A program made the position numbers and the translations under genes. A model generated the notes under the pieces. It was not told the DNA's origin and did not search any database. It worked only from the letters and a program-made list of their open reading frames with translations. From the IMG/VR virus record IMGVR_UViG_3300035208_003026, positions 1 through 64,000 of that record: a stretch of DNA of 64,000 nt. One strand, given 5' to 3'. This DNA comes from a virus (Duplodnaviria; Caudoviricetes). Positions 8,864-35,609 of this stretch are shown here, piece after piece; the stretch's first letter is position 1; the number at the start of each line of letters is the position of its first letter.

Positions 8864-9387
8864 GACTAATAGATATCTTACGCCATTATGGATTTAAGAT
8901 TGAAAAGAATCCACAGAGACCAAACTGGTCTAGCAACTTAAGGTGTCCGTTACCATCCCATAAAGGTGCTAAAGAACGGACACCATCATTTGGTTACAAC
9001 TTTGTAACTGATCACTGCCATTGTATGGGCTGCGGCTTTACCGGTCGAGCAGTGGAATTCATTTCAGCTATGGAAGGTGTAAGTAGAACATCTGTGGCGG
9101 AAAAGATTCTCGCCCAGTATGGTGAAGATGTATCTTCTGATGATTTTCAAGATTATGAAGATGATATCTCGCCAATTCTTCTTGAATGTTCAAGATACAT
9201 TCAAGATTACGTGCGAAAATATAAAGACAATCCCAAAGCTTTAACTTACATTGATAAGTTGATTTGGTGGTTGGATTTCTACCTAGCGCAAAAAGCTCCG
9301 ACTAAAAGCATTACTGCAGAAGAGCTTCGACACAGGTTTAATAGAGTAAAGGAACTTTTAGATAATGAAGTGCTTAATTCTGGGTGA
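8743..9387 (+). CDS. stand-alone primase zinc-binding (CHC2-type) domain protein
   Basis: CPLPSH..ERTPSF...CHCMGCG..G.AVEFISAMEG; no TOPRIM domain. Confidence 0.8.
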   Translation: MRKVSNTARPPAGSDSQGQGSDDGGTSEPFAHIKAANRKVRLIDILRHYGFKIEKNPQRPNWSSNLRCPLPSHKGAKERTPSFGYNFVTDHCHCMGCGFTGRAVEFISAMEGVSRTSVAEKILAQYGEDVSSDDFQDYEDDISPILLECSRYIQDYVRKYKDNPKALTYIDKLIWWLDFYLAQKAPTKSITAEELRHRFNRVKELLDNEVLNSG

Positions 9388-9415
9388 TTTACATATTGGT
9401 AAAGGAATATATTGA
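9365..9415 (+). pseudogene. displaced 5' stub of sbcD
   Basis: MKCLILGDLHIGKGIY* vs SbcD MKVLILGDPHIGK (11/13 identical). Confidence 0.8.
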
Positions 9416-9424
9416 CATTATGGT

Positions 9425-10156
9425 ATGTGGTACATATACAAAATCACCAATACTGTTAATGGAAAAGTTTATATTGGCCAAACCGTAAATTATAAGAACC
9501 GTTGGTCACGGCATCGTTCAGATGCAAAGCATAAGCCAGATAGTAGAAATAAACATCTAACAAGCGCTATTATAAAGTATGGCATTGATAATTTTACTTT
9601 CGAAGTGATTACTAAAGCAGATACTTTAGAGATTGCTGATGATTTAGAAATTGATTATATTAAACAGTACAATGCTACAGACCCTGTGTTTGGATACAAC
9701 AAACTACCCGGAGGACAAGGTAGGCGACCGATGTCAGAAGAAATGAAAAGAAAACTTTCTGAATCATTAAAAGGGAGAGTGAGCCCGATGAAAGGAAAGC
9801 ATCATACTGATCAGGCCAAACTATTATTATCAATAGCAAACATTGGAAATAAGCATAGTCTTGGTGTTAAAGTTTCAGATGAGACAAAAAAGTTATTATC
9901 AATTCTTAATACTGGTAAGATTCAATCAAATGAAACTCGTGCAAAGAGATCACAATCTATGATTGGTAAAAATGCTGGCGAGAAAAATGGAATGTATGGG
10001 AAAAGAGGTGCTCGTGGCAAGCTTACCAAAGAACAAGCTGATAATATTCGATTGGAATATAAAGAATCAAATATTTCAATGTTAAAATTGGCTTATAAAT
10101 ATAACATAAGCAAAAGGGCTGTTTTTAACATTTTACATGAAAGATTTTATAGATGA
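9425..10156 (+). CDS. free-standing GIY-YIG homing endonuclease with NUMOD3 repeats
   Basis: YIYKITN..NGKVYIGQT, GYN, repeats of the SEEMKRKLSES..KG type, C-terminal HTH-like tail. Confidence 0.9.
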   Translation: MWYIYKITNTVNGKVYIGQTVNYKNRWSRHRSDAKHKPDSRNKHLTSAIIKYGIDNFTFEVITKADTLEIADDLEIDYIKQYNATDPVFGYNKLPGGQGRRPMSEEMKRKLSESLKGRVSPMKGKHHTDQAKLLLSIANIGNKHSLGVKVSDETKKLLSILNTGKIQSNETRAKRSQSMIGKNAGEKNGMYGKRGARGKLTKEQADNIRLEYKESNISMLKLAYKYNISKRAVFNILHERFYR

Positions 10157-11364
10157 AAGTGTTGATACTTGGCGATCCTCATATTGGTAAAAATTTGTCA
10201 GTTGGTAAACCAGCGGAACAAGGTAAGCTTAACTCTAGGATTCAAGATCAAATTGATCTGTTGAATTGGTCTTATGATCAATGTGTACAACAAGATGTTA
10301 AACATATTGTGATTACAGGAGATGTTTACCAAGATTTTAGGCCGCATCCTGCTGTTATTGGCATCTTTATGCGTTGGCTTAAGCTTTGCGAACGTGCCAA
10401 TATCGAAGTCCATATCGTAATGGGTAATCACGACATACTACGTTCGGGACAATATGTAGTATCAGCTCTAGATTTAGTATCTGAACTAGAGCTTCAATCA
10501 GCTAATGTATATAAGAATGTTACAAGAGTTGAGCTTGAACACTTTACTCTAGTATTTATTCCTTTCCGTGACAAGCGAATGTACGATGTCAAGACAAAGG
10601 AACAAGCTCTCTCAAAACTGGCTGAGGAAATAGCCGCCGTAACAAAACTGGATTCCGATAAGCCCAAGATTGCAATTGGCCATCTAGCATTGGAAGGATC
10701 TTTATCTGTCGGTGATGAGATTTCCGATCAGCTTAATGAATTGTATGTTCCACCGGAGATGTTTGAGTGGTTTGATTATGTTTGGATGGGGCACATTCAT
10801 CATCCTCAGGTTATCCAACACCACAAACCATATGCCGCTCATATCGGCAGTTTAGATCGGTCTGACTTCTCTAGAACAGAAGTTGAGCATGGTAAGATTG
10901 CAATCCTTTTAGATCCTGGTTCAAAGAACAACTTTGTAGAAATTGATTTACCAACAAGGTCTTTAAGACCTTTGAAGATAGATGTACCGCCAGGTAAGGA
11001 TTCTACTGAGTTTGTTATCAATGAACTATGTTTACTTGACAAGAAGGCAACAATCAAAGATGCGATTGTTAGACTCGAAATTCAGTTGAACGGACCAGAA
11101 CTTGATAATGTTGATAGGGAAAAGGTAGAATCATATCTCAAGAACAATCTAGAGGTACATCATATCTGCAATTTCTCCGAATCAAGAGCCATCTCCATGC
11201 TTCAAATTAATGCCGAGGATACTTTCGATAACACTATGCAGATAGGTGACACTATTAACAAGTGGGCTGAAACCAGAGATCATTTCGAAAACGAACAGGA
11301 ACGTGATGAATTCAAGGCTGCAGCACACGAGATTTACAAGGCGTATGAGGAGAAATACCTGTAA
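10153..11364 (+). CDS. sbcD: SbcD/Mre11-family (gp47-like) nuclease
   Basis: GDPH, TGDVY, GNHD, GHL, MGHIH metallophosphoesterase motifs. Confidence 0.9.
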   Translation: MKVLILGDPHIGKNLSVGKPAEQGKLNSRIQDQIDLLNWSYDQCVQQDVKHIVITGDVYQDFRPHPAVIGIFMRWLKLCERANIEVHIVMGNHDILRSGQYVVSALDLVSELELQSANVYKNVTRVELEHFTLVFIPFRDKRMYDVKTKEQALSKLAEEIAAVTKLDSDKPKIAIGHLALEGSLSVGDEISDQLNELYVPPEMFEWFDYVWMGHIHHPQVIQHHKPYAAHIGSLDRSDFSRTEVEHGKIAILLDPGSKNNFVEIDLPTRSLRPLKIDVPPGKDSTEFVINELCLLDKKATIKDAIVRLEIQLNGPELDNVDREKVESYLKNNLEVHHICNFSESRAISMLQINAEDTFDNTMQIGDTINKWAETRDHFENEQERDEFKAAAHEIYKAYEEKYL

Positions 11365-13508
11365 TGAGACCTCTTAGAATTTTTCTGAAGAACTTCATGA
11401 ACCACAGGCTAACTGAGGTGGATTGTACGAACTTTCAAAGTGTTCTTATTGTTGGTAAGTCTCAAAAGAATGATCGTATTTCTAATGGTGTTGGTAAGAC
11501 AACCATTTTAAGTGCCATTGAATATGCTTTATTTAACCAGTCACATGCAACAACATTAGATAAGGTTGTTCGAGATGGTAAGAAGAAGGCTGTTGTTGAG
11601 TTTGATTTCGAACTCAATAGTGAAGTTTACCGCATTTATCGCCACAGATCCGTTACTGGTTCTTCTGATGTTCGGTTGTATAAACTTAATGGAACTGAGT
11701 TCGAATCCATTTGTGAGAGAACACCTTCAGCTACAGACTCAAAGATTCATGAGCTAATTAAGATTTCACATAAAGCATTTACGTACTCTGTACTTTTCAG
11801 ACAAGCAGATCTTACGGGTCTTACATCCGTAACTGATCCGAAAAAACGTAAAGAGATTCTGAAAGAACCTTTGAATCTTGGTACTTATACCAAGCTTGAA
11901 GAGATGGCTGTTGATAAGCGCCGTCCTCTCAAAAGCAAAATTTCCAATATTGAGGGTTCCATTCAGGTTATCGGAAACCCGGATGATGATATTAACAAGG
12001 CTGAATCTGAGCTAGTCTCAAATCAAGCCATGATTAAATCGCTACAAGACTCTGTAACTACCAATGAAGAAGTAGTTACAACCAATCGTGCGCAGGTTGA
12101 TGATTTAAAACAATCACTAGATCAGCAGGATGTTGATATCCATCGAAAGGTTATTGAGCACGAAGAGCTTTTAAAGAAATTGAAGACCTCTGCAAAGGCA
12201 AAGGATAAAAGACTTCTCAACTTATCCGAGTTGCTTATCTCGAAAGAAGCTGAGTTAAAGAAATTTGATTTAGAAATTGAAAACTCTGAATCTATAAAAA
12301 AGAATCTTGCCTCAGAAAGTGGTAAAGATTTTGATGAATTACAGCTTCTTTACAAGAAGATTTGTGATGATGAGGTTAAGGGGTCTGAGATGTTGGCGGC
12401 TGTCAAAGCTCAGATGAAACTTACAAAGAAGTCACTTCCGGATAGTGATCAATGCCCTACATGTCAACAGAGTATTACATCAGAGTATCGTCGTGAGATG
12501 GAAAATGATGTAACTGAAAAGATTTGTAAGCTCCAAGAAGAGGCTGAGTTCCTAGAGGATGCTCTTGGTAAATGTAGGCGGAAGAAGATCAAGCTGGATG
12601 AGGGTGTTAAAGCAGAGCAGAAAAGAGTCAACGACCTGGACAAGATAGTTCAAAAGATTGAATCTTCTGGTAAAGCCATCATAGCTCTTCGTGGCGAAAT
12701 TGATCGTCTTTACACTGATCAAAAGGATACTACAAAAGCTCTTCAAGATGAGGAGCGTCAGATTCATGAAACTCAAGAACATCTGGATACACTTAAAGAA
12801 GCTGCTGATAAGTCCAATTCACCGACAATCAACAAGAAAATCTTCGAACTGAACCAGAAAATTAAGGATGCTTATGACGCTATTACTGAAAGTAATAGGC
12901 GCATCACTTCTTTAAGTACAGTTCAGGGTGGCTTAAAAGAGCGTATAAAGACGCGTAAGTCTGATAAAGAAAAGCTTACGGTATTAAAGGATACGCTTAT
13001 CAAAGATCGGCGTGAGTTAAAGATTGCTCAAATGGTTGTTGATGCTTTCAGCGGCCGTGGCATTCCGAACTTCATTATCCAAACTGTTCTTGATGAACTT
13101 CAGTTTGAGGCTAATAAGGCTCTAAAAGAACTCAGACCAGAGCTTGATGTTAAGATTGATTCTGAATTGAACTTTGAATATAGGCGTAATGGAATTCAAA
13201 GGGATTATGAGCAGCTATCTCATGGACAGCATGTATATATTGCCTTAGCTTTTAAACGTGGTCTTTCTATGGTTATACAGAAGAAATTAGGTATAACTAT
13301 AAATCTTTTAGCTTTTGACGAGGTGGATGCTCATCTTGATGATGAGGGAATAGAAGCTTTTGCGGATGCAATACGTAAGTGGCAAAAAGATTTTAGTATC
13401 TTTGTTATTACACATAATAAAGATCTACAAGACAAATTTTCTCACGCTATTCTTGTAGAAGAGTCTGAGAATGACGGAGCTGAAGCAAGGTTGGTGTCAA
13501 TATGGTAA
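11364..13508 (+). CDS. sbcC: SbcC/Rad50-family (gp46-like) ATPase
   Basis: Walker A NGVGKTT, coiled coil with CPTCQQ hook, LSHGQ signature, FDEVDAHLD, VITH. Confidence 0.9.
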   Translation: MRPLRIFLKNFMNHRLTEVDCTNFQSVLIVGKSQKNDRISNGVGKTTILSAIEYALFNQSHATTLDKVVRDGKKKAVVEFDFELNSEVYRIYRHRSVTGSSDVRLYKLNGTEFESICERTPSATDSKIHELIKISHKAFTYSVLFRQADLTGLTSVTDPKKRKEILKEPLNLGTYTKLEEMAVDKRRPLKSKISNIEGSIQVIGNPDDDINKAESELVSNQAMIKSLQDSVTTNEEVVTTNRAQVDDLKQSLDQQDVDIHRKVIEHEELLKKLKTSAKAKDKRLLNLSELLISKEAELKKFDLEIENSESIKKNLASESGKDFDELQLLYKKICDDEVKGSEMLAAVKAQMKLTKKSLPDSDQCPTCQQSITSEYRREMENDVTEKICKLQEEAEFLEDALGKCRRKKIKLDEGVKAEQKRVNDLDKIVQKIESSGKAIIALRGEIDRLYTDQKDTTKALQDEERQIHETQEHLDTLKEAADKSNSPTINKKIFELNQKIKDAYDAITESNRRITSLSTVQGGLKERIKTRKSDKEKLTVLKDTLIKDRRELKIAQMVVDAFSGRGIPNFIIQTVLDELQFEANKALKELRPELDVKIDSELNFEYRRNGIQRDYEQLSHGQHVYIALAFKRGLSMVIQKKLGITINLLAFDEVDAHLDDEGIEAFADAIRKWQKDFSIFVITHNKDLQDKFSHAILVEESENDGAEARLVSIW

Positions 13509-14172
13509 ATGAATGCAATCACGATCTTAAAGATGAATGTAAGTGCATTTGTCATGAACCAAGAAAGATCATACTACATGGCCATGCTTGTTGTTCAAAG
13601 TGTCCAGAGTGTGGATTTAGAATAAGGTGTTCTTGCAAGTGGTGTAGTCCAAAAGATGACAACAGCAATCTACAAAAACAGGATTGAGGATAATTCTGGA
13701 ACGGTTTATAGAAATACCAAAATGTGGTTATAAATATGGAAACTTCAAAAGATTATTTTGTTGATGTTTGTGATAATTGTTTAACAGCCAGTTGTTGGCA
13801 TGGTGAATTTTTATGTAATAATTCATCTAATGCTGGAATTAAAAAAGTAAAAGCATCAGAATTACTTGAAAAAGCAAAAGAACATCCAGATAATTTTTCC
13901 ATTGAAAAGTTGATGAGTGTTTGTGGGAGCATTGATTATGTCAATGACAATGGTTTATGACAAATCGTATAATTATTAAATATGAAATGAACGAGAAAGA
14001 AACGGCCACTGCAGAATCTTTCTTGGAAGAACATAAAAATTGTGATAATGGAGCTGCAATTGGCGGAGCTATTACATGGCTGATCACATCAACATCTATT
14101 GGTCAAATGTGTTTTGTTAGGTGTAATCGTTGTGATAAAAATAAATCTATAACAGATTATATTTTGTTATAA
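13502..14172 (+). CDS. three small Cys-rich hypothetical ORFs (13502-13687, 13724-13960, 13957-14172)
   Basis: coupled short ORFs with CxxC pairs in an AT-rich patch. Confidence 0.5.
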
Positions 14173-14191
14173 TAATTAATCTTTTTGTGAA

Positions 14192-15182: not shown

Positions 15183-15200
15183 CGGCGCGACAAGGATATT

Positions 15201-15449: not shown

Positions 15450-15494
15450 TTAAAATGAAAGAGTTTGAAACGTTAATGAAAGGATGAGTACTGA

Positions 15495-20379: not shown

Positions 20380-20765
20380 TGACAATTTCTTTACTCCTAA
20401 ACGATTTCTTAGATGACTTGGTTGATTTTAAACCAATGTCACTCGGGCAGATTGTATGGTTTACGAAATCTCACAAACATTTCGTTAAGATTTGTATGCT
20501 AGCTCGTAATAGTTCTAGGTCTGCTAAGTATTTTTTGAAGCAATGCGAATCTCTCAATACAGAAAATGAGATTTCTGATATTCAATTGTCCGCACTGATC
20601 GTAATCATTGGCGAGATTGAGAATCTAGGAACTCATAACATATACGACGCTTTGGTGTCGAGAACCTCGAAGGCAGCGGGTAATAGTTATTGGTCGCGAG
20701 GAATGGCGACCTCTTACTTGCTACACAGAGAGGTTACTTGTGAGACAATACGTAAGTCTGCATAA
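20379..20765 (+). CDS. hypothetical protein
   Basis: 128-aa ORF. Confidence 0.55.
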   Translation: MTISLLLNDFLDDLVDFKPMSLGQIVWFTKSHKHFVKICMLARNSSRSAKYFLKQCESLNTENEISDIQLSALIVIIGEIENLGTHNIYDALVSRTSKAAGNSYWSRGMATSYLLHREVTCETIRKSA

Positions 20766-23700
20766 TCACACTATTGGGTCAATTGGTGACAGCCTCATTA
20801 CACCAAAGCAACTTATTGAGGCAACCCAAGAAGCTGGACAGAGAGCTGTGGCCGTAACTGACCATGGCTCGATGTCACGTCTCTGGGAAACATATAAAGC
20901 AGCAAAGAAAGCTGGCATCAAGCTTATCGCGGGTTGTGAGATTTACTTCGTTGAAGATGCGTCCAACGAAAATGATACAACACTTACCCATTTGGTTCTA
21001 TTGGCAAAGAACCAAAAGGGCTATCAGAATTTGCTTACCCTAAATAAAAAGGGGTTTGACCAACAAAATGTAATTGGCAAACGAGCAATTTCTCGTGTTG
21101 ATTGGAAGTTGTTGGAACAATACCACGAAGGTTTAATTTGCACATCAGCTTGTGGTAATGGTATTGTTGCCCAATGCGTAATGCGAGATGATTTTGCAAG
21201 AGCTGAAAGAACAGCTCTACATCTTCAACAGATTTTTGGGGATGATTTTACTCTTGAACTGCAGCCACATAACCTGCAGCGTAGAGCTTCTGCGTATTCT
21301 GGTGCTGTCAATCAGCAAAAGGTTAACCTAGTTCTTAAAAAGTTGAGTGAGAAGCTTGGTATCCGTTGTATTGTTGCAACGGATGCACATTACATAAGGC
21401 AAGCGCATCACAAAGCACATGATGTGTATCTGTGCGATACATCTGGCCAGCCTATTACTTCTGGTAACAGACTTCGATATGACAAACCAGACTTCTACGT
21501 CAAGAATGCTGAGGAGGTATATGAGCATTTTACTCGTCACATGAAGGTGTGGGGAGAAGAATTTGTCGAATCATTGTTCGAGAATACCATCTATTATGCT
21601 GATCAGTGTGAGGACGCTGCATGGATTTCTCCCGAAGTAATGACCGGAGAGAAGTCTCAGCTTCCAGAGTTCCCATATAAAGATGAGCCTGATTATGAGC
21701 AATTTAAGGCTTGGCAAGCTGAAGACTCAGGTTTTGATTTCAAACAGTTTAAGAAATCAGACATACCTGAGGATGCTCAGTTCTATAGATTCCGAACGCA
21801 AGAAGGTTTGGTAAAGAAAATCAATCAGGATAAGATTCCCGCATCTGATCTTCCTGAATGTATCCAGCAAAGCCTAGAAGAGTTTGATGTATTCGAATAC
21901 AGAGGGTTCTCTAGTTATATGTTAATTACTGCTGATGTATTAAAATGGGCTAGAGATAATAATATATTAGTATCTGCTGGCCGTGGTAGTTGTGGAGGGT
22001 CTTTAACAGCATATGTTAATAATATACATCAAGCATATCCGAAACGTTATGGGCTTATTTTTGCAAGATTTTTAAATAAGTATAAAGAAGCCTATCCTGA
22101 CGTTGATATGGATCTTGCTCCATCTGGGCGTGAAAAAATTATTGATTATTTGCGTAGAAAATATGGACCAGATAACATCGCTCATGTTTCTAACATTAAT
22201 ACCATTACTCCAAAAGTGTATGCGAGAGATATTGCTCGTGTATTTGAATTTGATGGTTCTAGATCTGCCGCAGCTGAAAAAGGCAATTTGATTGCGGATT
22301 CTATTCCTACTGAGATGCATACTGTTAAACAGGCTTTAGAAGAAGCTCCGTTATTTGCTGAATATGCTAAACAATATCCAGAGTTAGCAGAGTTTGCAGA
22401 ATTACTTTGTGGTTTGCCTAGAGCTTGGAGTACACATGCTGGTGGTGTGATTATATCAAAAAGACCTTTAGAAGGTCTTGTACCACTTAGACGTGATAAT
22501 ACTGGTGTTTTAGTTTTAGAGTATGATAAAATAATTGCTGAGGAGAATGGCCTTATAAAATATGATTTTTTAGGGTTAGAAACACTTGATATTATTAATG
22601 AAACATATAAGTTGATAAAAGACTCAGGAAAAGAAATTATTGATTTTGATTATGAAATATATGATAAGAAAACATATGATCTTATAAGTGATGGAGATAC
22701 TTTTGGTGTATTTCAGCTCGGATCAACTGCTGTTAATGTATGTAAAAAAGTAAAACCAAAAAATATAGATGATATTGCACTAATATCTGCTTTAGTACGT
22801 CCATCATCGAAAGATTCAATTCCAGCAGTTTTGGATGTAAGAAATGAAAATAAAAAAGTTTCCTTACCACACAAAGATTTAGAAAGATCTTTTGGTAATA
22901 CATACGGAATTGGATTGTATGAAGAATCATTATTGTTTCTTGCTGGTGATTTTAGTGGTTGGGATTTAAACGAAGCAGATAAGCTTCGTAAGTTAACAAA
23001 GGAGAAGGGTAAAAATCCTGAAAAAGTTAAACAATGGAAAGAAGAATTTATTGAATCTGCTTATAAAAGAGGACACTCTAAAGAATTTGCTGATGAAGTA
23101 TGGGGTAAGTATGTAGAATCTTTCCAGGGATATGGTTTTAATAAGTCAGTCACAGAAGATGAATTAGTTAATATATTTACTTTAGAAGGAAAGTTCATAA
23201 TCTCAAAACCAATCAAGGATATTCAACCAGGAGAATTTGTCCGTTCGCGAAATGAGGAAACTGGTGAGGACATCTATATCGAAGTGATTCGTAATCATGA
23301 TCATGGAGAGTTGGAAGTGGTTGAGGTAGAGCTTGAGACTGGGGAGAAGGTAAAATGTACAATGAATCACAAGTTCAGGGTGCAAGAAACCGGAGAGATG
23401 TTACCACTTTGGAAAATTATTGAGCTTGGTTATTCTATGGTTGTGAGTGAAAATATATCGATAACAGATGAAGATTGGGTTGAAACGGTAGTTAATAAAG
23501 ATGAAGAACTTGCTCAAATCAAAAACCAAATAGTTGCAGGCCTTGGGTTATCTCAGGATCAAATTGGAGAACATCCACTTCATATATATGAACTCAAACA
23601 AAAGATAGAAAACTATGACCTTTTGGTAACCACAATTAGGAATATTCTCACTAAAGCAGGAATTCCTGACCGTGAGGATTATCCTGATGAAAATGTTGAT

Positions 23701-23946
23701 GAATATGAGAAGTCTTTAAGAGCTGCTGGAAGAGTAATTGCGCTTGATCAACGTGTAAAATTAGCTTGTGATAATACATTCTCAGCTAAAAGAATGGCTA
23801 GAAAAGATCCTGAAATCATTAAACAATTTCTAGAAGATTTAGCTTGGGAATTAGAAGAAGTTTATAAGAATTCAGAAACAGGATTAGCTCCAACGTTTAT
23901 TAACAAAGCTGTTTATGAAATCAGTACAATAAAGGAATTTGTATGA
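20740..23946 (+). CDS. dnaE: DNA polymerase III alpha, N-terminal part fused to split-intein N-fragment
   Basis: PHP motifs HNH, TDHG, DAHY; GRGS, PDVDMD, HAGG, KYDFLGL; ends GYGFNK then Hint sequence. Confidence 0.93.
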   Translation: MRQYVSLHNHTIGSIGDSLITPKQLIEATQEAGQRAVAVTDHGSMSRLWETYKAAKKAGIKLIAGCEIYFVEDASNENDTTLTHLVLLAKNQKGYQNLLTLNKKGFDQQNVIGKRAISRVDWKLLEQYHEGLICTSACGNGIVAQCVMRDDFARAERTALHLQQIFGDDFTLELQPHNLQRRASAYSGAVNQQKVNLVLKKLSEKLGIRCIVATDAHYIRQAHHKAHDVYLCDTSGQPITSGNRLRYDKPDFYVKNAEEVYEHFTRHMKVWGEEFVESLFENTIYYADQCEDAAWISPEVMTGEKSQLPEFPYKDEPDYEQFKAWQAEDSGFDFKQFKKSDIPEDAQFYRFRTQEGLVKKINQDKIPASDLPECIQQSLEEFDVFEYRGFSSYMLITADVLKWARDNNILVSAGRGSCGGSLTAYVNNIHQAYPKRYGLIFARFLNKYKEAYPDVDMDLAPSGREKIIDYLRRKYGPDNIAHVSNINTITPKVYARDIARVFEFDGSRSAAAEKGNLIADSIPTEMHTVKQALEEAPLFAEYAKQYPELAEFAELLCGLPRAWSTHAGGVIISKRPLEGLVPLRRDNTGVLVLEYDKIIAEENGLIKYDFLGLETLDIINETYKLIKDSGKEIIDFDYEIYDKKTYDLISDGDTFGVFQLGSTAVNVCKKVKPKNIDDIALISALVRPSSKDSIPAVLDVRNENKKVSLPHKDLERSFGNTYGIGLYEESLLFLAGDFSGWDLNEADKLRKLTKEKGKNPEKVKQWKEEFIESAYKRGHSKEFADEVWGKYVESFQGYGFNKSVTEDELVNIFTLEGKFIISKPIKDIQPGEFVRSRNEETGEDIYIEVIRNHDHGELEVVEVELETGEKVKCTMNHKFRVQETGEMLPLWKIIELGYSMVVSENISITDEDWVETVVNKDEELAQIKNQIVAGLGLSQDQIGEHPLHIYELKQKIENYDLLVTTIRNILTKAGIPDREDYPDENVDEYEKSLRAAGRVIALDQRVKLACDNTFSAKRMARKDPEIIKQFLEDLAWELEEVYKNSETGLAPTFINKAVYEISTIKEFV
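23146..23445 (+). other. split intein N-fragment (IntN, Ser1)
   Basis: SVTEDELV... block A; KCTMNHKF block B (TxxH). Confidence 0.85.
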
Positions 23947-24053
23947 GTAATATCAAATCAGTAAAACCGGTTGGTAAAGCACAAACTTATGATCTTGAGG
24001 TAGCTCATCCAGATCATCAGTATTATTTGAGCAACGGAATGCTAACAAGCAAT
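23943..24053 (+). other. split intein C-fragment (IntC, 37 aa)
   Basis: block F TYDLEV, block G LTSN/S. Confidence 0.88.
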
Positions 24054-25403
24054 TCTCATGCTACTCTTTACTCAATGATATCTTTCCATACAGCATATCT
24101 CAAAGCTCACTATCCGGTTGAGTTCTTGGTTGCCAACTTAATGTCCGAAGTGTCTTCTAATGCAAAGGCCGCCAAAGACAATATCATGAAGATTAAGACT
24201 GAGATTCGAAATCGAAAGGTTAAGATTGTTCCGCCTCATTTAAACAACTCAGAGTTGTCCTGGAAAATTGTAGATGACAATACTCTAATGACTGGTTTAG
24301 ATTCTTTGAGAGGTATTGGTAAGGATGCTATTCCAGATATTGTATCTAAACGTCCATTTAAAAATTATCAGGATTTGATTTACCGAACGGATTCATCAAA
24401 GGTTCGGTCTACAAGTATCCAGGCAATGGCGGCATCGGGTTCTCTTGATGATTTCGGAATGGATCGTAAGACTATGTTCCATTACGCTTCTGATTATAGA
24501 GCAAAGCTTCGAAGCCATATGGATAAGTTGGAACGTGCTTGGGAGAAAGATTGGGCTAAATCAAACTTCTACACCAAGGGTTCAGATGATTCCGGTGAGT
24601 TTTGGAAGGATGGTTCTGGAAATAGACATGAAGTACCTGCTATTCCCAAGGATCGTATAGAAAAACATCTAGCTGAGTTTAAGTATCCATTCCCCAAAGA
24701 GAAGCCCTGGACAGTGCAAGAGATGTTTGCAATGGAAGAGCATTACATGGGAGAGGGTATCTCTGGAGATATCTTTGAAAGGTATCAAGGATTCTTTGAT
24801 AGGAAGAAGACCGTACCTTTCGAGGCTCTTAAACAGATGTTCCCATGGGAGAGTGTTGGTGATGATGAGCGCACTAATAGAAAAGCTAATACACACTATC
24901 TTGGTAACCACAAGATTCGACCATTAGAAGGTGTTGTTACATCTGTCTTTAGTTTTACAGTTAAGAAAGAGGATTCTCCTATCTTTGGACAAGAGATGGC
25001 AAGACTAACGATCCAAGATCCTTGGGGTGATGAATCGAGCCTCCTTTGTTTCCCGGAAGCTTGGGACGGAATGAAAACAAGACTAAAAGAACTCTCTGGT
25101 AACAAACAAGAGGTTGTTCCAGGTATTGCTATTAGGTTTTTAGGATCTTTTCAATGGGAAAATGAAGCTTCAACATCTTTTGTATTATCGGATATATTGG
25201 ATTACAAAGCTCCTCCAAGTCTACCTACGGATCGAGAATCTAAGAAGGTTAAAATGCCAAGGGCTAAAGCTAAAGCTAAAGATCTCGAAGAGATGGAACC
25301 CGAAGAAATGCTTAATGTCTTGGAAGATGAAATGTTGGGAGATGGATTATCCACTGTCAACGATTTAGAGGATATAGAATCTATTGAATCGCGTGAAGAT
25401 TAA
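23943..25403 (+). CDS. dnaE: split-intein C-fragment fused to DnaE C-terminal part
   Basis: MSNIKSVKPVGKAQTYDLEV...MLTSN|SHATLYS..YLKAHYPVEF; HhH LRGIG; OB fold. Confidence 0.92.
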   Translation: MSNIKSVKPVGKAQTYDLEVAHPDHQYYLSNGMLTSNSHATLYSMISFHTAYLKAHYPVEFLVANLMSEVSSNAKAAKDNIMKIKTEIRNRKVKIVPPHLNNSELSWKIVDDNTLMTGLDSLRGIGKDAIPDIVSKRPFKNYQDLIYRTDSSKVRSTSIQAMAASGSLDDFGMDRKTMFHYASDYRAKLRSHMDKLERAWEKDWAKSNFYTKGSDDSGEFWKDGSGNRHEVPAIPKDRIEKHLAEFKYPFPKEKPWTVQEMFAMEEHYMGEGISGDIFERYQGFFDRKKTVPFEALKQMFPWESVGDDERTNRKANTHYLGNHKIRPLEGVVTSVFSFTVKKEDSPIFGQEMARLTIQDPWGDESSLLCFPEAWDGMKTRLKELSGNKQEVVPGIAIRFLGSFQWENEASTSFVLSDILDYKAPPSLPTDRESKKVKMPRAKAKAKDLEEMEPEEMLNVLEDEMLGDGLSTVNDLEDIESIESRED

Positions 25404-25411: not shown

Positions 25412-25474
25412 ATGAGATGTATGACATGTGGTGCTGATATCCCACCTCAATGGGTTCATGCATTAAAATGTTAA
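25412..25474 (+). pseudogene. displaced 5' stub of the 26517 gene
   Basis: MRCMTCGADIPPQWVHALKC* vs MRCMNCGVEIPPAWVKCLEL; AAGGA RBS retained. Confidence 0.8.
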
Positions 25475-25533
25475 ATTCAACCTGAATTGTTGTACTATTA
25501 TATTATAATCTATACATTTTGTAATATATTAGT

Positions 25534-26505
25534 ATGGATAAGATTTGCAAAGTTTGTTTGAATAATAAATCTGATGAGTGTTTTCGCAAGAACAGTGCAA
25601 CATGCAAAGAGTGTAATTGTAAAAAACAAGCTATTTATCGTAAAAATAACAAAAAAGTTATTAATGAGAAGAATAAGGCTTATTATTTAGCTAATAAAGA
25701 GAGTATTCTGCAAAAAGAAGCAGAATATAGAAAAAGAAACATAGATATTATTAGGAAAAAAGATAGAGAACGGACAAAACAAAGAAAAAGAATAAAGAAA
25801 GAAAAGTTTTGTACAATTTGTAATAAAATAATTAGTTCGTATAAAAAATATTGTGATGTATGTCGTGAAATTGGTTACGAGAAAATAAATAAACAATATA
25901 TTGAGAGCAATAAAGATGCGATTAAGAAACGTAGAAAAGAATATTATGATAATAATAAAGAAAAAATTAAGTTAAAAATTAAATTATATATTGAACGTAA
26001 TAAAGATCTTATTTCTAAAAAAGCTCATAGTAATTATGTAAAGCATAAAGATAAATATGCAAAGTATCATAAAGAATATCGTGCTAAAAATAAAGAAAAG
26101 ATAAAAGAAAATAGAAAAATATATGAAGATAAAAAGAAAAATGATTTGAATTTACGTATAAGACGCAGGGTTAGGAATGCGGTTTATTGTGCGTTACATA
26201 GAAATGGATTTGAGAAAGATGGGTCGATACTTTCAAAATTACCATACACCATTAGTGATCTTAGATTTCATTTAGAATCATTATTTGAACCATGGATGAA
26301 TTGGGATAATTGGGGAGTTTATGATCCTGAAACGTGGGATGATAATAATCAGAATACTTGGACTTGGCAAATTGATCATATTATTCAACAGAGGGATTTG
26401 ATATATGATTCAATGGATCATCTAAACTTCAAATTATGTTGGGCTTTGGAAAATTTAAGGCCTTATAGTGCTAAGGCTAATATAAAAGAAAGTAAAAGAA
26501 AGTAA
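25534..26505 (+). CDS. free-standing HNH-type endonuclease with zinc fingers and Lys-rich repeats
   Basis: CKVC/CKEC/CTIC/CDVC; WQIDHI...NLRPYSAKAN; very AT-rich. Confidence 0.8.
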   Translation: MDKICKVCLNNKSDECFRKNSATCKECNCKKQAIYRKNNKKVINEKNKAYYLANKESILQKEAEYRKRNIDIIRKKDRERTKQRKRIKKEKFCTICNKIISSYKKYCDVCREIGYEKINKQYIESNKDAIKKRRKEYYDNNKEKIKLKIKLYIERNKDLISKKAHSNYVKHKDKYAKYHKEYRAKNKEKIKENRKIYEDKKKNDLNLRIRRRVRNAVYCALHRNGFEKDGSILSKLPYTISDLRFHLESLFEPWMNWDNWGVYDPETWDDNNQNTWTWQIDHIIQQRDLIYDSMDHLNFKLCWALENLRPYSAKANIKESKRK

Positions 26506-26516
26506 TAGGATTTAAT

Positions 26517-27269
26517 ATGAGATGTATGAATTGTGGTGTTGAAATACCACCAGCTTGGGTTAAGTGTCTTGAGTTAAACAGGTGCCCAGCATGCGATGGC
26601 GAGATTATGAATCAGGTATCTCAGGATCTTTTACAAGAATTAGCTGATGCAATGACTCGGATGCCAAATGATCCGCAGGGTGTTGCTGGCTGGCTATTAT
26701 CCAATTATCGATTTCAGAAAATGGGTTCTGCTGAACCTGTTGAGAAGTTCCATCGTAAGGGTGGTGAAAGAAGATCATCTGAAGATTTTGATGAATCTAA
26801 CATGAAGGTTGATCCTACGTACAATGAATTCATCAAGAGAAATAATGCAGCTGATCTAGTTGCTCGTGGTGAGAAGTTAGCTAAATTTAAGCATGGTGGT
26901 AATTCTCAGCTAGCAGAATATGCCTCTATGATTCAAGGGGTTGGCGATCCTTATGGTGATGATACTACAATAAATTTATCAGATGATGCTTCTCCAGATA
27001 TTGAAGACCAGAGAACTATGATGGCATTGGCTTCTGCTGGTCTGAATCCTTTCGCTGAAACTCCAGTTGGTGGAATTACTGATATGTCACAAGCTATCAA
27101 TCCAAGAGACGTTGAAAATCTTCTTACAAAAGGACAAACAGCTCCATTAAAAGAAGAGGTTCAGCTATCTCAGACAGCTGAAGGTCGAGCATATCTACAA
27201 AGAGATCAGTTTAAAAAACTAAAGGCGCAAGATGCAATCTCTGGCGGTGGTGGAGCATTTAGGAGATAA
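26517..27269 (+). CDS. zinc-ribbon hypothetical protein
   Basis: CMNC..CPAC at the N-terminus. Confidence 0.7.
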   Translation: MRCMNCGVEIPPAWVKCLELNRCPACDGEIMNQVSQDLLQELADAMTRMPNDPQGVAGWLLSNYRFQKMGSAEPVEKFHRKGGERRSSEDFDESNMKVDPTYNEFIKRNNAADLVARGEKLAKFKHGGNSQLAEYASMIQGVGDPYGDDTTINLSDDASPDIEDQRTMMALASAGLNPFAETPVGGITDMSQAINPRDVENLLTKGQTAPLKEEVQLSQTAEGRAYLQRDQFKKLKAQDAISGGGGAFRR

Positions 27270-27270
27270 T

Positions 27271-27507
27271 ATGGTTATTCAAAGAATTGGAAGTAAGAGT
27301 ATTGATGTGATAGAATATGAGGAGTTAAAAAAACTTGCTTCTCAAGGTATATCAGAAGAAGAAATTGGAAGCGTTGTTGCTGATTATGAAAATCAAGAGA
27401 ACGAGATTGATGCTATCAAGTCTTTTGAAGTAAAGCGTGAAGAGTATAAGCGTGAGCGTGCGCAGGATAATTTCAAATCAGGTTCAGGTTCCTTTAGGAG
27501 GGGCTAA
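27271..27507 (+). CDS. hypothetical protein
   Basis: AGGAG before ATG 27271 (in frame with listed ORF 27232-27507). Confidence 0.6.
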   Translation: MVIQRIGSKSIDVIEYEELKKLASQGISEEEIGSVVADYENQENEIDAIKSFEVKREEYKRERAQDNFKSGSGSFRRG

Positions 27508-28631: not shown

Positions 28632-28652
28632 CTCCAAGAGAGGTAAGGCCAA

Positions 28653-30453: not shown

Positions 30454-31211
30454 TTATGAGTAACAACACACCGTTCGTAGGAATCCGTCCGTTTGGAACA
30501 ACCCCAAAGCGTCAGGGTCGTCAGTTTGATAGTGATCTTCCGCGCATTCCTTATATGAGAATGCAGCCTGGTATTAACACCATCCGTATCTTGACTGGTC
30601 TTGGTGGTTATAGTCAGGTTAAGTGGAAAGGTCCAAAGTCTAAGGGTAAGTTTGGTGATCGTGTACGTACCGCATATCCTGCAGTTACTCTGGAAGAGTG
30701 TCCTGTTTATAAGTACCTAGGCCTTGAGGGCAAGGAACGTAATATGGTCGTTGCAATTGACCGTAATGATAAGGACGAACCTTTGAAGTTGGTTGATCTT
30801 TCTCAGCTCACAGCCGAGCAGATTGAGACAAATAATGAGGTTAAAAATTCGATGCGCAAGGAAGGCCAGAAGGTTACTCCTCGCGATTTCGACATCTCGA
30901 TCAAATTTGATCCGAAGTCTAAGGTTGCAACCGGTTTCTACTCTGTAGTTGCTGGAGATGTTTCCCCACTCGATGAAGAAGATTTGAAACTGATCGAAGA
31001 TGCTGGTGGTCAGGAAGTTTTGGAGAAGGTTCTTCAGCGGGCTTGTGTATGTCCAAAGCCGGAAACCGTTGAGAAGCGTCTTCGTGATCTTGGTTGGGAT
31101 GGCGCTGTTCAGAAGAAGGCAGATGCCAAAGGAGAGGCACCCTCTAATCTTGAGGAGCCTGAGGAAGAGGATTACTCCTTCCAGCGCCCTACTGAAGGCG
31201 AAGCTGAGTAA
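30396..31211 (+). CDS. putative single-stranded DNA-binding protein (gp32-like; start probably ATG ~30457)
   Basis: YMRMQPGINTIRIL, CPV, DFDISI, acidic C-terminal tail; next to the recombinase. Confidence 0.6.
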   Translation: MAQNHSHRKHNVSKTARRIIMSNNTPFVGIRPFGTTPKRQGRQFDSDLPRIPYMRMQPGINTIRILTGLGGYSQVKWKGPKSKGKFGDRVRTAYPAVTLEECPVYKYLGLEGKERNMVVAIDRNDKDEPLKLVDLSQLTAEQIETNNEVKNSMRKEGQKVTPRDFDISIKFDPKSKVATGFYSVVAGDVSPLDEEDLKLIEDAGGQEVLEKVLQRACVCPKPETVEKRLRDLGWDGAVQKKADAKGEAPSNLEEPEEEDYSFQRPTEGEAE

Positions 31212-31241
31212 TCAGTAAATAGCTTAGAATCTTCTTAGCTT

Positions 31242-31282
31242 AAAAGGGACAGTTCCAATTTAGGAACTGTCCCTTTTCTTTT
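31242..31282 (+). terminator. intrinsic terminator (possibly bidirectional)
   Basis: perfect 15-bp stem AAAAGGGACAGTTCC/GGAACTGTCCCTTTT with T-rich tail. Confidence 0.85.
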
Positions 31283-31297
31283 GTTATAGAACTGTTT

Positions 31298-31807
31298 ATG
31301 GTTCTAAGACAACTCAAACAAAAAGACCTGCCAGCTCTTAGAGAGAAATGGTTTAAAGAGCAAGGAGGAAAATGTCCACTTTTTGGTAAAGAATATTTAA
31401 TTACCGATATGACACTGGATCATTTTCATCGATTAAAATCAGAACTACCAGATGAAACTGGAAAAGGTTTGTGCCGTGGGGTTTTGCATAAACAAGCAAA
31501 CTCAATTGAAGGAAAGATTACAAATGTTTTCAAACGGTATGGTGGTGATAAACACACTGATATAGTTTCATTTTTAAGGAATCTTGCCGATTATCTTGAG
31601 TATAATAAAATACATTCAGAAGAGAAATGGATTCATCCAACAGAGGAACCGAGGAATCCAAAACTTATGAAGTCTTCGTACAATAAGTTAGTTAAAGTTG
31701 TTGCTGGAAAACAAAAAGTACCAAAATATAGTGGTAAGCTTACCAAGCAGTTGGAGGCTTTATTTGAAAAGTACGATGTTACTCCAGAATTTCAGAGTCG
31801 AGGGTAA
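31298..31807 (+). CDS. endonuclease VII-family protein (resolvase or EndoVII-type homing endonuclease)
   Basis: QGGKCPL, LDHFH, GLCRGVLH..AN..EG, FLRNLADYLE. Confidence 0.8.
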   Translation: MVLRQLKQKDLPALREKWFKEQGGKCPLFGKEYLITDMTLDHFHRLKSELPDETGKGLCRGVLHKQANSIEGKITNVFKRYGGDKHTDIVSFLRNLADYLEYNKIHSEEKWIHPTEEPRNPKLMKSSYNKLVKVVAGKQKVPKYSGKLTKQLEALFEKYDVTPEFQSRG

Positions 31808-31834
31808 TCAAATGCTAAGATCTTTAGGTAAGAT

Positions 31835-32842
31835 ATGAATATTCAAGATGCATGCAATCTATTAGGGATAGAACCAGGAGCCTCGAAAGAAGAAGCTAAG
31901 AAGGCGTTTAGAAAGAAAGCTTCTGAGTATCATCCTGATAAAAACTCTTCAGAGGGTGCTGAGCAGAAGTTTAAAGATATCAATTCAGCTTATCAATTGA
32001 TTGAGAAACACGGAACAACCCCTCAACCATTTAATGTTTCTTCAGAGTTCTACGATCATAGTGAGCACTTCGCTGAAGAGCTTAGGCGCAGAATGAACTT
32101 TCATGTTAATTTTGGCAGACCATCACAGCTTAGAAGTGAACCTATAATTGTTCATGCAGATATTCCTTTTGATGTTTCTGTTCTTGGTGGTATTAAAGAA
32201 ATCATTTATGAGAGAACTATCAAGTGTGAAGCTTGTACTGGTGGTAAGGTATCATCCAACAAAGTGATGTGCTCTAAGTGCGGAGGACATGGGCATCGTA
32301 AGTATGGATCAGATGATCATGAACTTCCTTGTACTACTTGTGGGGCAACTGGATACATAACAAACAATTCTATATGTGATAAGTGTAAGGGTTCAGGAAC
32401 TCGGAAAAGTGTTGACACTTTGAAGGTAACGATTCCTCCTGGGATGGAATCTGGTGTTAGGCTGATTTTGAATGGTAAAGGAAATTATAATCCTTCATTT
32501 AACATTTATGACAATGTTATCGTTGTTATTTCAGTAATACCTGATCACGATATGCAACTTAGTGGCGGTGATGTTATATCAGTAATAGAGCTTAATTTGT
32601 TAGAAGCCCTACAAGGAACAAAGAGAAAGGTTCGTACGATTAAGGGCGAAAAAACATTAGTAATTAAACCAAAGACAAGACATAGAGATACGATTAGAGT
32701 TGCTGGTTTTGGTGTCCCACCAATGGGCGGTCATACGATAGTTATCAATGTATCATATCCTGATAGTGTTGATAACATAATTGAAGTATTGAAAGATAAA
32801 GAAAGTACAGAACCCGAAGAGATCTCTGGTGTTCAAAGTTAG
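31835..32842 (+). CDS. dnaJ: DnaJ chaperone (class A architecture)
   Basis: J domain YHPDKN; four CxxCxG repeats; C-terminal substrate domains. Confidence 0.92.
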   Translation: MNIQDACNLLGIEPGASKEEAKKAFRKKASEYHPDKNSSEGAEQKFKDINSAYQLIEKHGTTPQPFNVSSEFYDHSEHFAEELRRRMNFHVNFGRPSQLRSEPIIVHADIPFDVSVLGGIKEIIYERTIKCEACTGGKVSSNKVMCSKCGGHGHRKYGSDDHELPCTTCGATGYITNNSICDKCKGSGTRKSVDTLKVTIPPGMESGVRLILNGKGNYNPSFNIYDNVIVVISVIPDHDMQLSGGDVISVIELNLLEALQGTKRKVRTIKGEKTLVIKPKTRHRDTIRVAGFGVPPMGGHTIVINVSYPDSVDNIIEVLKDKESTEPEEISGVQS

Positions 32843-32850
32843 GAGTAAGA

Positions 32851-33207
32851 GTGGATTTTAGATCATTTTGTGACAACAAAGGTTGTGGAAAAGAAATGCG
32901 GCCTGTTGTTGATAAGGATACTTTAACAGCTTATTGTACAGAGTGCGGTAAGCCTGTTGGTAATATTTCAGTTTTCATGCGTCGTCAGATGATTTCTCAT
33001 GGTCAAGTTCGGCGAAATGAAAAGAAGAAGTTGGCATGGGCTGTTAAATGTCCTTCATGTACGAAGGAGGGTCCACCTGAACTGGATAAAAAGGGCGAGA
33101 ACCTTGTCTGCTCCTTCTGTGGTAAAGAGATCGATAACCTTGCAAAACCGTTCGAACAAATGATCAAGGTTAATTTGAAAGCTCAAAGGAGAGCTGATGA
33201 GGGATGA
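32851..33207 (+). CDS. double zinc-ribbon protein
   Basis: CDNKGC..CTEC and CPSC..CSFC. Confidence 0.7.
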   Translation: MDFRSFCDNKGCGKEMRPVVDKDTLTAYCTECGKPVGNISVFMRRQMISHGQVRRNEKKKLAWAVKCPSCTKEGPPELDKKGENLVCSFCGKEIDNLAKPFEQMIKVNLKAQRRADEG

Positions 33208-34016
33208 CCTCTTTATCTGAATTTAAAAAGAAGCAACGTATACTTAAAAAGGTTCTTCGAGTCTGTCAACATCTATTAGCTGGATCTGAACAGGCTCGCG
33301 GAGCTAGACGTTACATTAACTCTAGGTTAGATCAACGAGATCAAATGATTTGGGAGTTTGGATACTTCCCATCTGATGATCGGATTTCAGATCTTACCGA
33401 TATGATTGGTAGAAAAGATCTTGAATTTTTAAACTTGTATTATCCAAAGTTTCTAGCTGGTGGTATCGCTCCACATGGACACTTCTCAGATCATAACTTG
33501 ATCATGCCATTTAGAGATGTGCATGGAAATATTATAGCATTCTTAGGCCGATGTCTTCTTACAGAGACAGAACGTCAAGAGAATTTGATACATAAATATA
33601 AGTATAGTACAGGTTGTAATAAAGACTTGTACATCTATGGATTGGATAAGGCCAAAGATTCAATAATTGAAAACGATTTCGTTATAGGTGTAGAGGGTCA
33701 GTTTGATTGCATTTCACTACATGCTCATGGTATTAGTAATGCGATTGCATTTGGTTGGGCTAATATGTCTAGGTATCAAATGTTTCAACTACACCGATAT
33801 ACAAATAACATAGTTCTGATGTTTGATAATGATGAAGCTGGACAGAAGGCAAAGAAAAGAGTGAAGGATAGATATAAAGATGTTGCAAACATCAAAGTAG
33901 TATCTCCTCCAAAGGGGTTTAAGGATATTGATGAATTTTTCCGAGGCTCCAATGATACTGAATACGTCAAGTATGTTATAGATACAATAAAAGGTTTTGG
34001 AGAGAGGAATGGGTAG
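33204..34016 (+). CDS. dnaG: DnaG-type primase catalytic/TOPRIM domain lacking the zinc domain
   Basis: LIMPF..GNIIAFLGR, KYKYS, VEGQFD, MFDNDEAG, KDIDEF. Confidence 0.85.
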   Translation: MTSLSEFKKKQRILKKVLRVCQHLLAGSEQARGARRYINSRLDQRDQMIWEFGYFPSDDRISDLTDMIGRKDLEFLNLYYPKFLAGGIAPHGHFSDHNLIMPFRDVHGNIIAFLGRCLLTETERQENLIHKYKYSTGCNKDLYIYGLDKAKDSIIENDFVIGVEGQFDCISLHAHGISNAIAFGWANMSRYQMFQLHRYTNNIVLMFDNDEAGQKAKKRVKDRYKDVANIKVVSPPKGFKDIDEFFRGSNDTEYVKYVIDTIKGFGERNG

Positions 34017-34446
34017 AAAATCTAATCGATCTAACAATTATCAACATTTATTTGCAGAACAGTCATATTCGAATGAGATGATGGCTGAATTTTCCGAATC
34101 CCAAGGTTTGATTGAAAATTACAAACCCGAAGATAAGGAAAACTTAATAGATCTAAAGGAGTCTCTCCACAAAGAGTTCTGGAGGCTTGCCAAGGAAAAT
34201 CTAACAGAACGGCAGTTCCAGGTTATAGAACTTTTGGCTAAGGGGTTTACTCAAATTGAAATTGCTAAACAACTGAATGTCAATCAAAGTTCAATTACCA
34301 AAAGTGTTAATGGTAATTGTGATTATAGAAATGGGAAGCGCGTATACGGCGGTGCTAAGAAAAAATTGCGCAGATTGGCAGACCAAGACTCACAAATACA
34401 GGAAATCATAGCACAAATTGCCGAAATCCACGCTCAGTATGATTGA
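34009..34446 (+). CDS. sigma-70 region-4-like HTH transcription factor
   Basis: LTERQFQVIELLAKGFTQIEIAKQLNVNQSSIT; GAGG before ATG 34009. Confidence 0.75.
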   Translation: MGRKSNRSNNYQHLFAEQSYSNEMMAEFSESQGLIENYKPEDKENLIDLKESLHKEFWRLAKENLTERQFQVIELLAKGFTQIEIAKQLNVNQSSITKSVNGNCDYRNGKRVYGGAKKKLRRLADQDSQIQEIIAQIAEIHAQYD

Positions 34447-34511
34447 GACAATGGCAATAAACGGCAATAAAAGATGGTTTTTGGTCGAGAGTCGTAAGCC
34501 GTTGAAATATA

Positions 34512-35519
34512 TTGAGTATGAAACAGTGTATACTATGCAAGGAAGCGAAAGTACTTGATGCTTTTGCTAATAATAAAAGATCGAGTGATGGTTTACAGAA
34601 TTACTGTAAATCTTGTCAAAAGGTGTATCGGGATCGGTTAAAGCAAAAATCGAAACCAAAATTTGAACATCTTCAATGTGCTCGTTGTGGTATAACTAAA
34701 TCAGTAGATGATTTTCCAAAAGTTGGTAGTTCATCTACAGGATATGGATCTTGGTGTAAAGAATGTAAGAGTAAATATCAACAAAACTATGATTATCGAG
34801 AAGGTTACAAAAATCGCCGCAGTGAACGTGTTCAGTGGTTTCGTTCAATAAAATCTGGAATTCCTTGCACTGATTGTGGTCAGGTACTTGAGCCATCTTG
34901 TATGGATTATGACCATATTGGCGATGATAAAATTGAAAATGTAGCTCGTATGGTTGTTCATAATGCTACAAAAGAAAAGATACTTGAAGAGATGGAAAAA
35001 TGCGAGCTTGTTTGCTTATTATGTCATAACCGAAGAACACAAAGGCGTCTTGATGATCAAGGGGTAAATAAATATTCACCATATGTACAACGAAACATCG
35101 ACATCATTAATCAAGCTAAATCGGTTCCGTGTTCATATTGTGGGCAGCAATATGAACCATTTAACATGCAATTTGATCATATAGATCCTTTATTAAAGGA
35201 TGTTAATGTATGCCAGCTTAAGAGTGCTAAAGTCGATAGGTTAATGAATGAGATTTCAAAATGCCAGGTTCTTTGCGCTGTATGCCATCGTCGAAAAACT
35301 TTAATGGAACAAAAAGGTAATCTTTATCCAAAGTCTAGAAAGAAAGAAGAAGTAAAGAAAACGTTTCTTGATATAGATAATAAGAAGAAAGAATGTACAA
35401 AATGCCATGAGATTTTAGATTTTGATAAATTTAGGATTAGTAAAAAGACAAGTAGCGGGTTAGAGAGCTGGTGTAAGAATTGTTTGAATGAATATAAACG
35501 TGATAGACGGGCTAAATAG
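34512..35519 (+). CDS. free-standing endonuclease with two tandem HNH-like modules and three zinc fingers
   Basis: PCTDCG..DYDH..CELVCLLCHNRRT and PCSYCG..QFDH..CQVLCAVCHRRKT; CxxC..F..CKxC fingers. Confidence 0.8.
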   Translation: MSMKQCILCKEAKVLDAFANNKRSSDGLQNYCKSCQKVYRDRLKQKSKPKFEHLQCARCGITKSVDDFPKVGSSSTGYGSWCKECKSKYQQNYDYREGYKNRRSERVQWFRSIKSGIPCTDCGQVLEPSCMDYDHIGDDKIENVARMVVHNATKEKILEEMEKCELVCLLCHNRRTQRRLDDQGVNKYSPYVQRNIDIINQAKSVPCSYCGQQYEPFNMQFDHIDPLLKDVNVCQLKSAKVDRLMNEISKCQVLCAVCHRRKTLMEQKGNLYPKSRKKEEVKKTFLDIDNKKKECTKCHEILDFDKFRISKKTSSGLESWCKNCLNEYKRDRRAK

Positions 35520-35609
35520 AAATGGCAAAAAGGAAGCTTAGCAGATCAAGATAAATACATTCAATCAATAATCGCGCAGATAGCTGAGATACATGCTCAA
35601 TATGACTGA
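35518..35609 (+). pseudogene. displaced 3' stub of the sigma-like gene
   Basis: RNGK remnant, then LADQDKYIQSIIAQIAEIHAQYD* vs LADQDSQIQEIIAQIAEIHAQYD* (20/23 identical). Confidence 0.88.

Follow-up and report, generated by a model that had tools for sequence, protein, structure and literature searches.

Three free-standing homing endonucleases of an uncultured jumbo phage probably spread by gene-end replacement

We analyzed a window of 64,000 nucleotides (nt), the first 64 kb of the 209-kb IMG/VR virus record IMGVR_UViG_3300035208_003026 (Duplodnaviria; Caudoviricetes). It contains three free-standing homing endonuclease genes that probably spread by gene-end replacement, in the manner of the WHO elements of yeasts and the mORFs of fungal mitochondria. 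At all three sites the nuclease gene lies between a stub of 15–30 codons and a complete conserved gene, one end of which the stub duplicates. The sites are the start of sbcD (site a), the start of a zinc-ribbon gene (site b) and the end of a helix-turn-helix (HTH)/sigma-like gene (site c). Comparative sequence analysis showed that each unit consists of a nuclease and a foreign terminus of the neighboring conserved gene, with the native terminus left as the stub on the far side, and that the units are mobile between diverged phages. A preliminary description of this DNA had reported three such layouts, and all three were re-found at the same coordinates.

The record is estimated to be 49% complete and thus derives from a jumbo phage. 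A search of cultured phages returned no match above 27% identity (the best SbcD match, 27%) and no annotated relative or host. The gene order of the window is common to many uncultured relatives. Relatives labeled L### are loci fetched from such uncultured phages, and stub counts refer to the nuclease lineages among the window and these loci.

We compared 501 open reading frame (ORF) ends across the whole 209-kb record, in three frames, with their surroundings (±3 kb). The three stubs scored 97, 77 and 55 against a background of at most 46, which argues that the stub layouts are not due to chance. The remaining high scores came from paralogous full ORFs, a repeat region and a low-complexity run; within the record, terminal copies outside ORFs and repeats occur only at sites (a), (b) and (c). 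Among 1,999 gene ends from the fetched loci, terminal copies of this kind were found solely across a nuclease gene. Nuclease-free relatives carry a single copy each. Both copies together, the observation that the preliminary description had named as contradicting its proposal, were looked for among these relatives and never seen. The three nucleases represent three architectures from two superfamilies (GIY-YIG and HNH), and every close homolog that could be placed occupies the same junction. They had been called unrelated, which is correct for (b) and (c) insofar as they have no detectable shared sequence, but both appear to be of the HNH (beta-beta-alpha-metal) type.

Stubs and working gene ends at the three sites

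The genes, stubs and hairpins described at the three sites are all on the plus strand. At site (a), the stub (9365–9415) holds the native sbcD start, with homologous codons 1–15 extending to 9409, and ends just past the metal-binding D-x-H motif of SbcD. Its start is overlapped by the last 23 nt of a primase zinc-finger (CHC2) gene (8743–9387; Pfam PF01807, E 1e-8), and the sbcD start is overlapped likewise in the nuclease-free L090, L091 and L095. The free-standing GIY-YIG endonuclease (9425–10156; Pfam PF01541, 8e-14, and PF07460; PHROG homing endonuclease, 3e-41) contains NUMOD3 repeats and a C-terminal HTH, and the catalytic Y, G, R, E and N residues are invariant across its family in the alignment. 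The GIY-YIG stop codon overlaps the ATG of the working sbcD (Mre11/gp47-like, 10153–11364) in an ATGA overlap. Replacement codons 1–15 of this gene (10153–10197) are identical to the stub at 11/15 amino acids and 29/45 nt. Stubs are found in 6/6 nuclease lineages (the window, L059, L060 and L180, with decayed copies in L061 and L110), and all end at codons 12–15, in hosts down to 39% SbcD identity. In L061 (1164–2456) and L110 (about 1530–1840), the primase zinc-finger gene is separated from the decayed stub by a further, unrelated ORF.

The flanks of site (a) are 75–80% identical between the window and L059. Five codons distinguish the two stubs, each by a synonymous difference in the sbcD frame, so the stubs diverged while still serving as working starts. 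From position 9398, inside the stub, there are 8 mismatches in 344 nt (98% identical), a stretch that includes the 5′ end of the nuclease gene. The two hosts are about 77% identical, and the pattern is most simply read as the entry of near-identical nuclease DNA into both of these diverged phages via recombination within the stub; it fits repeated homing in which the stub provides the homology arm. Lys-Gly is encoded at sbcD codons 13–14 in 31/56 empty starts and 3/3 long stubs, compared to 0/5 starts linked to intact nucleases, a suggestive hint (p about 0.04) at the GIY-YIG target.

At site (b), the stub (25412–25474) begins 8 nt past the dnaE-C stop, keeps the ribosome-binding site (RBS) and is homologous to the zinc-ribbon gene start up to 25468. 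Its 19 homologous codons match the working start at 12/19 amino acids and 39/57 nt. The working zinc-ribbon gene (26517–27269), which follows dnaE, is conserved in this phage group. Stubs are present in 2/6 nuclease lineages, the window and L056, both ending at codons 19–22. The imported tract (25469–26612), running from the stub end through the nuclease gene and working-gene codons 1–32, is about 85% identical to the stub-less L049. Over zinc-ribbon codons 1–32 the window matches L049 at 84/96 nt and other relatives at 61–64/96, whereas over codons 33–44 the match to L049 is at background (21/36 nt). We interpret this region as a co-conversion tract of about 1.1 kb with its far junction at the stub end.

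The nuclease at site (b) (25534–26505; 323 residues, 26% GC content) has N-terminal CxxC pairs, Lys-rich helical repeats and a C-terminal D-H...N...N domain, whose D, H, N and N are invariant among its relatives. The protein itself has no Pfam or PHROG match, and 11/20 of its relatives match HNH_4 weakly. A PDB sequence search gave nothing better than E ≥ 0.34. Fold searches with the structure model (predicted local distance difference test, pLDDT, 92.6) returned no significant match; the best Foldseek rows were all HNH nucleases, each weak (E ≥ 0.6), and weak fold matches were obtained to CAD (Z 3.4, root-mean-square deviation (RMSD) 4.2, 101 aligned) and PacI (Z 3.2, RMSD 4.9, 87 aligned). 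The invariant pattern, the weak HNH_4 matches and the weak HNH folds indicate that the nuclease is likely to be HNH-type. A hairpin (25493–25534) ends at its start codon, with similar hairpin sequences in L049 and L053, and possibly represses translation of the nuclease, by analogy to a precedent in T4 (PMC2988022). Upstream, dnaE (20740–25403) is fractured at a split intein, and its N-half runs into about 160 unrelated residues where the relatives L009 and L010 have a separate ORF of 343–348 residues. The arrangement resembles the "fractured genes" of PMC2677866. One to three small tandem paralogs of the zinc-ribbon C-terminus follow the zinc-ribbon gene in the window (27232–27507) and in L013, L068 and L072.

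At site (c), the order is reversed. The working gene (34009–34446; 145 residues) encodes a LuxR/sigma-region-4-like HTH protein (Pfam GerE, 2e-6; PHROG sigma factor), and its replacement 3′ end covers at least 34375–34446, with a left boundary that is not sharp. It is followed by a free-standing double-HNH endonuclease (34518–35519, in an ORF from TTG at 34512; PHROG HNH, 2e-53) with CxxC zinc motifs, both HNH modules of which are conserved in the alignment (D-H and downstream N/H residues). The stub (35516–35609) holds the native 3′ end, comprising an intact frame (35538–35609) and an internally deleted remnant back to 35516. Over 23 codons, stub and working end are identical at 20/23 amino acids and 47/69 nt. 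The stub leads into the untranslated region (UTR) and terminator which follow the gene in the nuclease-free L016, L017 and L020; the intrinsic-terminator-like hairpin (35636–35657) is directly 3′ of the gene in nuclease-free relatives. Stubs occur in 5/5 nuclease lineages (the window, L062, L064 and L179, and decayed in L181).

Over the last 48 nt, the (c) stubs and the empty L016, L017 and L020 form one class (37–46 identical positions), and the replacement ends of the window, L062, L064 and L181 form the other (37–43 identical). Stubs and their own working ends share 30–35. The stub and downstream DNA are 96–100% identical between the window and L062, while the nuclease protein is only 80% identical; L062 and L181 have 91% identity in the host and 69% in the nuclease. 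Nuclease and host are thus discordant. In L179, the stub (about 3490–3520) and working end (2360–2390) match perfectly over about 28 nt and then diverge, hinting at gene conversion or staggered repair. A tandem 10-nt repeat (34452–34471) upstream of the double-HNH gene, kept in the occupied L062 and L064, is a possible promoter or operator. The HTH/sigma-like gene is also a hotspot, with HNH, GIY-YIG and LAGLIDADG-like genes on either side of it, mostly without stubs (L022, L023, L019, L033, L042, L044 and L045).

Native ends, imported ends and recoding

If the stub is the displaced native end, the gene ends of nuclease-free relatives should match it, as the preliminary description had anticipated. 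At (a), the DNA of the stub is nearer than the working start to 7/7 close nuclease-free relatives. At (b), the stub is nearer to 6/9 relatives by DNA and 8/9 by protein. At (c), the match is to L016, L017 and L020 (44/48 and 41/48 nt). By these comparisons the stub was shown to be the native end, from flanking context at all three sites and from sequence too at (a) and (c). The working end travels with the nuclease, since the (b) tract is shared with L049 to codon 32 and the (c) replacement ends cluster across hosts. The proposal that these are splicing-free mobile units of a nuclease and a replacement terminus is thus supported by their recurrence in relatives, the imported ends and the lack of a ribozyme. 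Stubs are present in 11/11 close lineages at (a) and (c) combined, but the lower count at (b) shows that a stub is not obligatory there. Stages of decay are seen in L061, L110, L181, L071 and L115, and the dead or truncated nucleases of L110, L115 and L071 complete what, from these sequences, is a life cycle.

Each pair of gene ends had been described as conserved in protein and diverged in DNA, and the replacement ends as recoded. Between relatives, about half of the identical residues differ in codon (about 0.55). Synonymous changes between stub and working end are at or below this background at (a) (5/10) and (b) (3/9), where they represent ordinary allele divergence, whereas 16/20 at (c) exceeds it (p about 0.02 against the 0.55 expectation, and 0.006–0.05 depending on the background). 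Only (c) therefore diverges beyond background, and part of its excess may be attributable to release from an RNA-structure constraint on the native end. The native end contains a predicted RNA hairpin (35574–35626) in which a 15-nt motif (35576–35590) pairs with the 3′ UTR. The 15-nt run is invariant in six native-type (c) alleles, compared to only 3/77 conserved body codons that are invariant. The consensus fold of the native end and UTR shows weak covariation (1 two-sided change). The motif occurs once in the record, and the motif and hairpin are absent from all nuclease-linked replacement ends at (c). Because the motif is predicted to pair with the UTR and is lost in the replacement ends, the excess recoding may stem from constraint on the native end no less than from selection for immunity. 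We had at first read the invariant motif as the nuclease target, but the stub still carries it, and a constraint on the RNA is at least as good an explanation. Matches in a scan of viral contigs for the motif look mostly like chance and were not used.

Proposed homing route and alternative explanations

Gene-end replacement could proceed as follows. During co-infection, the nuclease would cut or nick the empty allele within the terminal 12–40 codons, at about codons 12–15 of sbcD, 19–22 of the zinc-ribbon gene and 107–123 of the HTH gene. The gene-side broken end would recombine with the donor working gene, copying in the donor terminus. The other broken end would recombine with the donor stub (a, c) or, where there is no stub (b), be joined by microhomology. 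The product would carry its own stub, the nuclease, the donor terminus and its own gene body, with no need for splicing. With its site interrupted by the insert and the imported terminus diverged in sequence, this occupied allele would not be cut again. Over time, stubs and nucleases would decay, and chimeric gene ends would remain. Work on T4 shows that homology on one side is enough to support homing, with microhomology at the junctions, and that phage nucleases favor codons of critical residues (PMC2988022).

Several observations weigh against this route. Stubs are missing at (b) from 4/6 nuclease lineages (L049, L050, L053 and L074) and from distant nucleases behind the HTH gene in L032, L040, L033, L044 and L045. 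As already given, only 6/9 relatives favor the (b) stub by DNA, and the zinc-ribbon start of L053 resembles the empty type. At (c), L015, L018 and L021 favor the replacement end, and L015 and L018 are nuclease-free yet replacement-like. These two may represent donors, or alleles from which the nuclease has been lost; the 425-nt spacer of L015 contains no nuclease remnant. The relatives included no near-identical empty allele of this phage. Three further free-standing nucleases of the record, one HNH and two LAGLIDADG (G000:C1 98835–99161, 101836–102657 on the minus strand, and 103651–104784), have no detectable stub. Finally, the cut sites of free-standing nucleases in T4 usually lie at a distance of hundreds to thousands of bases, and distant cutting with co-conversion is the rule there (PMC2988022). 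The main rival of gene-end replacement is that these are ordinary nucleases of the T4 seg/mob type that cut elsewhere, the stubs being accidental scars of illegitimate entry and the foreign ends co-converted flank with no role in immunity. The stub-less occupied alleles and the ordinary divergence of the (a) and (b) replacements speak for it. We nevertheless regard it as unlikely, since the stubs end within about 4 codons of each other in very diverged hosts and are carried by every close lineage at (a) and (c), and since host-specific, open (a) stubs with synonymous-only differences require repeated recombination inside the stub.

A reading compatible with gene-end replacement is that stubs are kept mainly for host cis-elements (the overlapping end of the primase gene at (a), the RBS at (b), and at (c) the RNA hairpin together with the terminator) and need not be used by the nuclease. 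The 23-nt overlap with the upstream gene and the invariant motif pairing with the UTR fit this, but it accounts for retention rather than origin; the overlap spans only 8/15 codons at (a), decayed stubs are seen in L061, L110 and L181, and the hairpin has just the one two-sided change, so that we find it improbable as the main reason. That the inserts are self-splicing introns, with the stub as exon, is more improbable still, even though, among six similar-looking cases in Tremella mitochondria, one proved to be a genuine intron (PMC7315562). The host genes at all three sites are complete without splicing and co-linear with relatives, with no ribozyme core around the nuclease ORFs. The non-coding flanks of the inserts measure 0–71 nt, in agreement with the earlier statement that they leave no room for a ribozyme, and an Rfam search at the gathering threshold and at E ≤ 5 gave no intron model match at (a), (b) or (c). 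As a positive control, the group I model RF00028 detects a probable group I intron in the same record (E 5e-6, below the gathering score), with a 305-residue nuclease-like ORF, in an apparent major capsid protein gene beyond the window (G000:C1 about 77980–79150). Least probable of all are nuclease-independent local duplications or assembly artifacts. Nothing suggests them beyond the record being a metagenomic assembly, while the same layout recurs in independent assemblies that differ in sample and assembler, the copies are 64–68% identical and no stub occurs without a nuclease.

Relation to known elements and significance

The closest precedents for gene-end replacement are fungal. WHO elements at FBA1 of Torulaspora and Lachancea yeasts replace the FBA1 3′ end with a resistant one and cut in an allele-specific manner, a mechanism shown experimentally; the displaced fragment starts near the cut, is a proposed recombination arm and later decays (Coughlan et al. 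2020, PMC7282813). As here, the nuclease gene is flanked on one side by a full-length chimeric gene and on the other by a fragment of the corresponding end, without splicing. WHO elements differ in being yeast nuclear genes for an intein-like LAGLIDADG-zinc-finger protein, with one target, 3′ fragments of about 400 bp and an arrangement in clusters, whereas the phage elements encode GIY-YIG and HNH proteins, have three targets and stubs of 45–90 nt, and affect 5′ as well as 3′ ends. With regard to the stub as a recombination arm, high identity begins inside the stub at (a), and donors without stubs exist at (b). Mitochondrial mORFs provide foreign C-termini for several genes of one genome, as in Allomyces atp6 and Glomus atp6, atp9, cox2 and nad3 (PMC3630166), and terminal duplications are known in Tremella (PMC7315562). 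They share with our elements an endonuclease ORF joined to a foreign terminus, a displaced native terminus nearer to empty relatives, and several affected genes per genome; they differ in residing in organelle genomes, in being mostly LAGLIDADG with some GIY-YIG, and, in Glomus, in affecting C-termini only. The elements described here work like WHO elements and mORFs but are not members of either, since they differ from WHO elements in encoding GIY-YIG/HNH proteins with other targets and from mORFs in being part of a virus record and not of a mitochondrial genome. They belong to the free-standing phage nucleases, being located outside introns and inteins and patchily present at fixed sites among related phages.

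Among phage systems, T4 seg/mob intronless homing is similar in that GIY-YIG/HNH genes lie between conserved genes, with co-conversion and start-codon hairpins; PMC2988022 and the ICP1 survey (PMC10448857) describe distant cut sites, and no duplicated terminal stub turned up in the passages searched. The T4 MobA/gene 60 element is an HNH element in a conserved phage gene, in which a short homologous region replaces the target segment (bioRxiv 10.1101/2022.08.31.505936). It sits mid-gene, splits the gene into two proteins, deletes the native segment and involves ribosomal bypassing, whereas the host genes here are whole and the native segment is stranded. We found no description of a stub with a replacement end in the phage literature, although the coverage of our search was incomplete and absence is not proven. 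The strategy itself is already known from the yeast WHO elements, and is here extended to phage GIY-YIG/HNH nucleases and to gene starts. Elsewhere in the same record, several intein-type LAGLIDADG matches lie inside long ORFs. The window also contains a TnpB-like ORF (5720–6859; 379 residues, judged by eye) with no adjacent transposase, which is absent from the same site in the relatives L002 and L003.

If end-replacement homing were common in jumbo phages, a stub endpoint would locate a cut site to a precision of a few codons, the targets of many uncharacterized nucleases would be readable from genomes, and the (c) stub would in addition keep a regulatory RNA element of the host. Each stub is a precise and cheap prediction of a nuclease target, here for three unstudied families. 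Such stubs are missed by annotation pipelines, and chimeric ends can mislead phylogenies. The finding suggests how free-standing nucleases reach conserved, hard-to-escape targets, here one next to the metal-binding motif of SbcD, with neither ribozyme nor intein, and how the mosaic gene ends of phages arise. We give roughly even chances to the broader proposition that homing by end replacement is widespread in jumbo phages, as a third way besides introns and inteins for nucleases of whatever family to invade conserved coding sequence.

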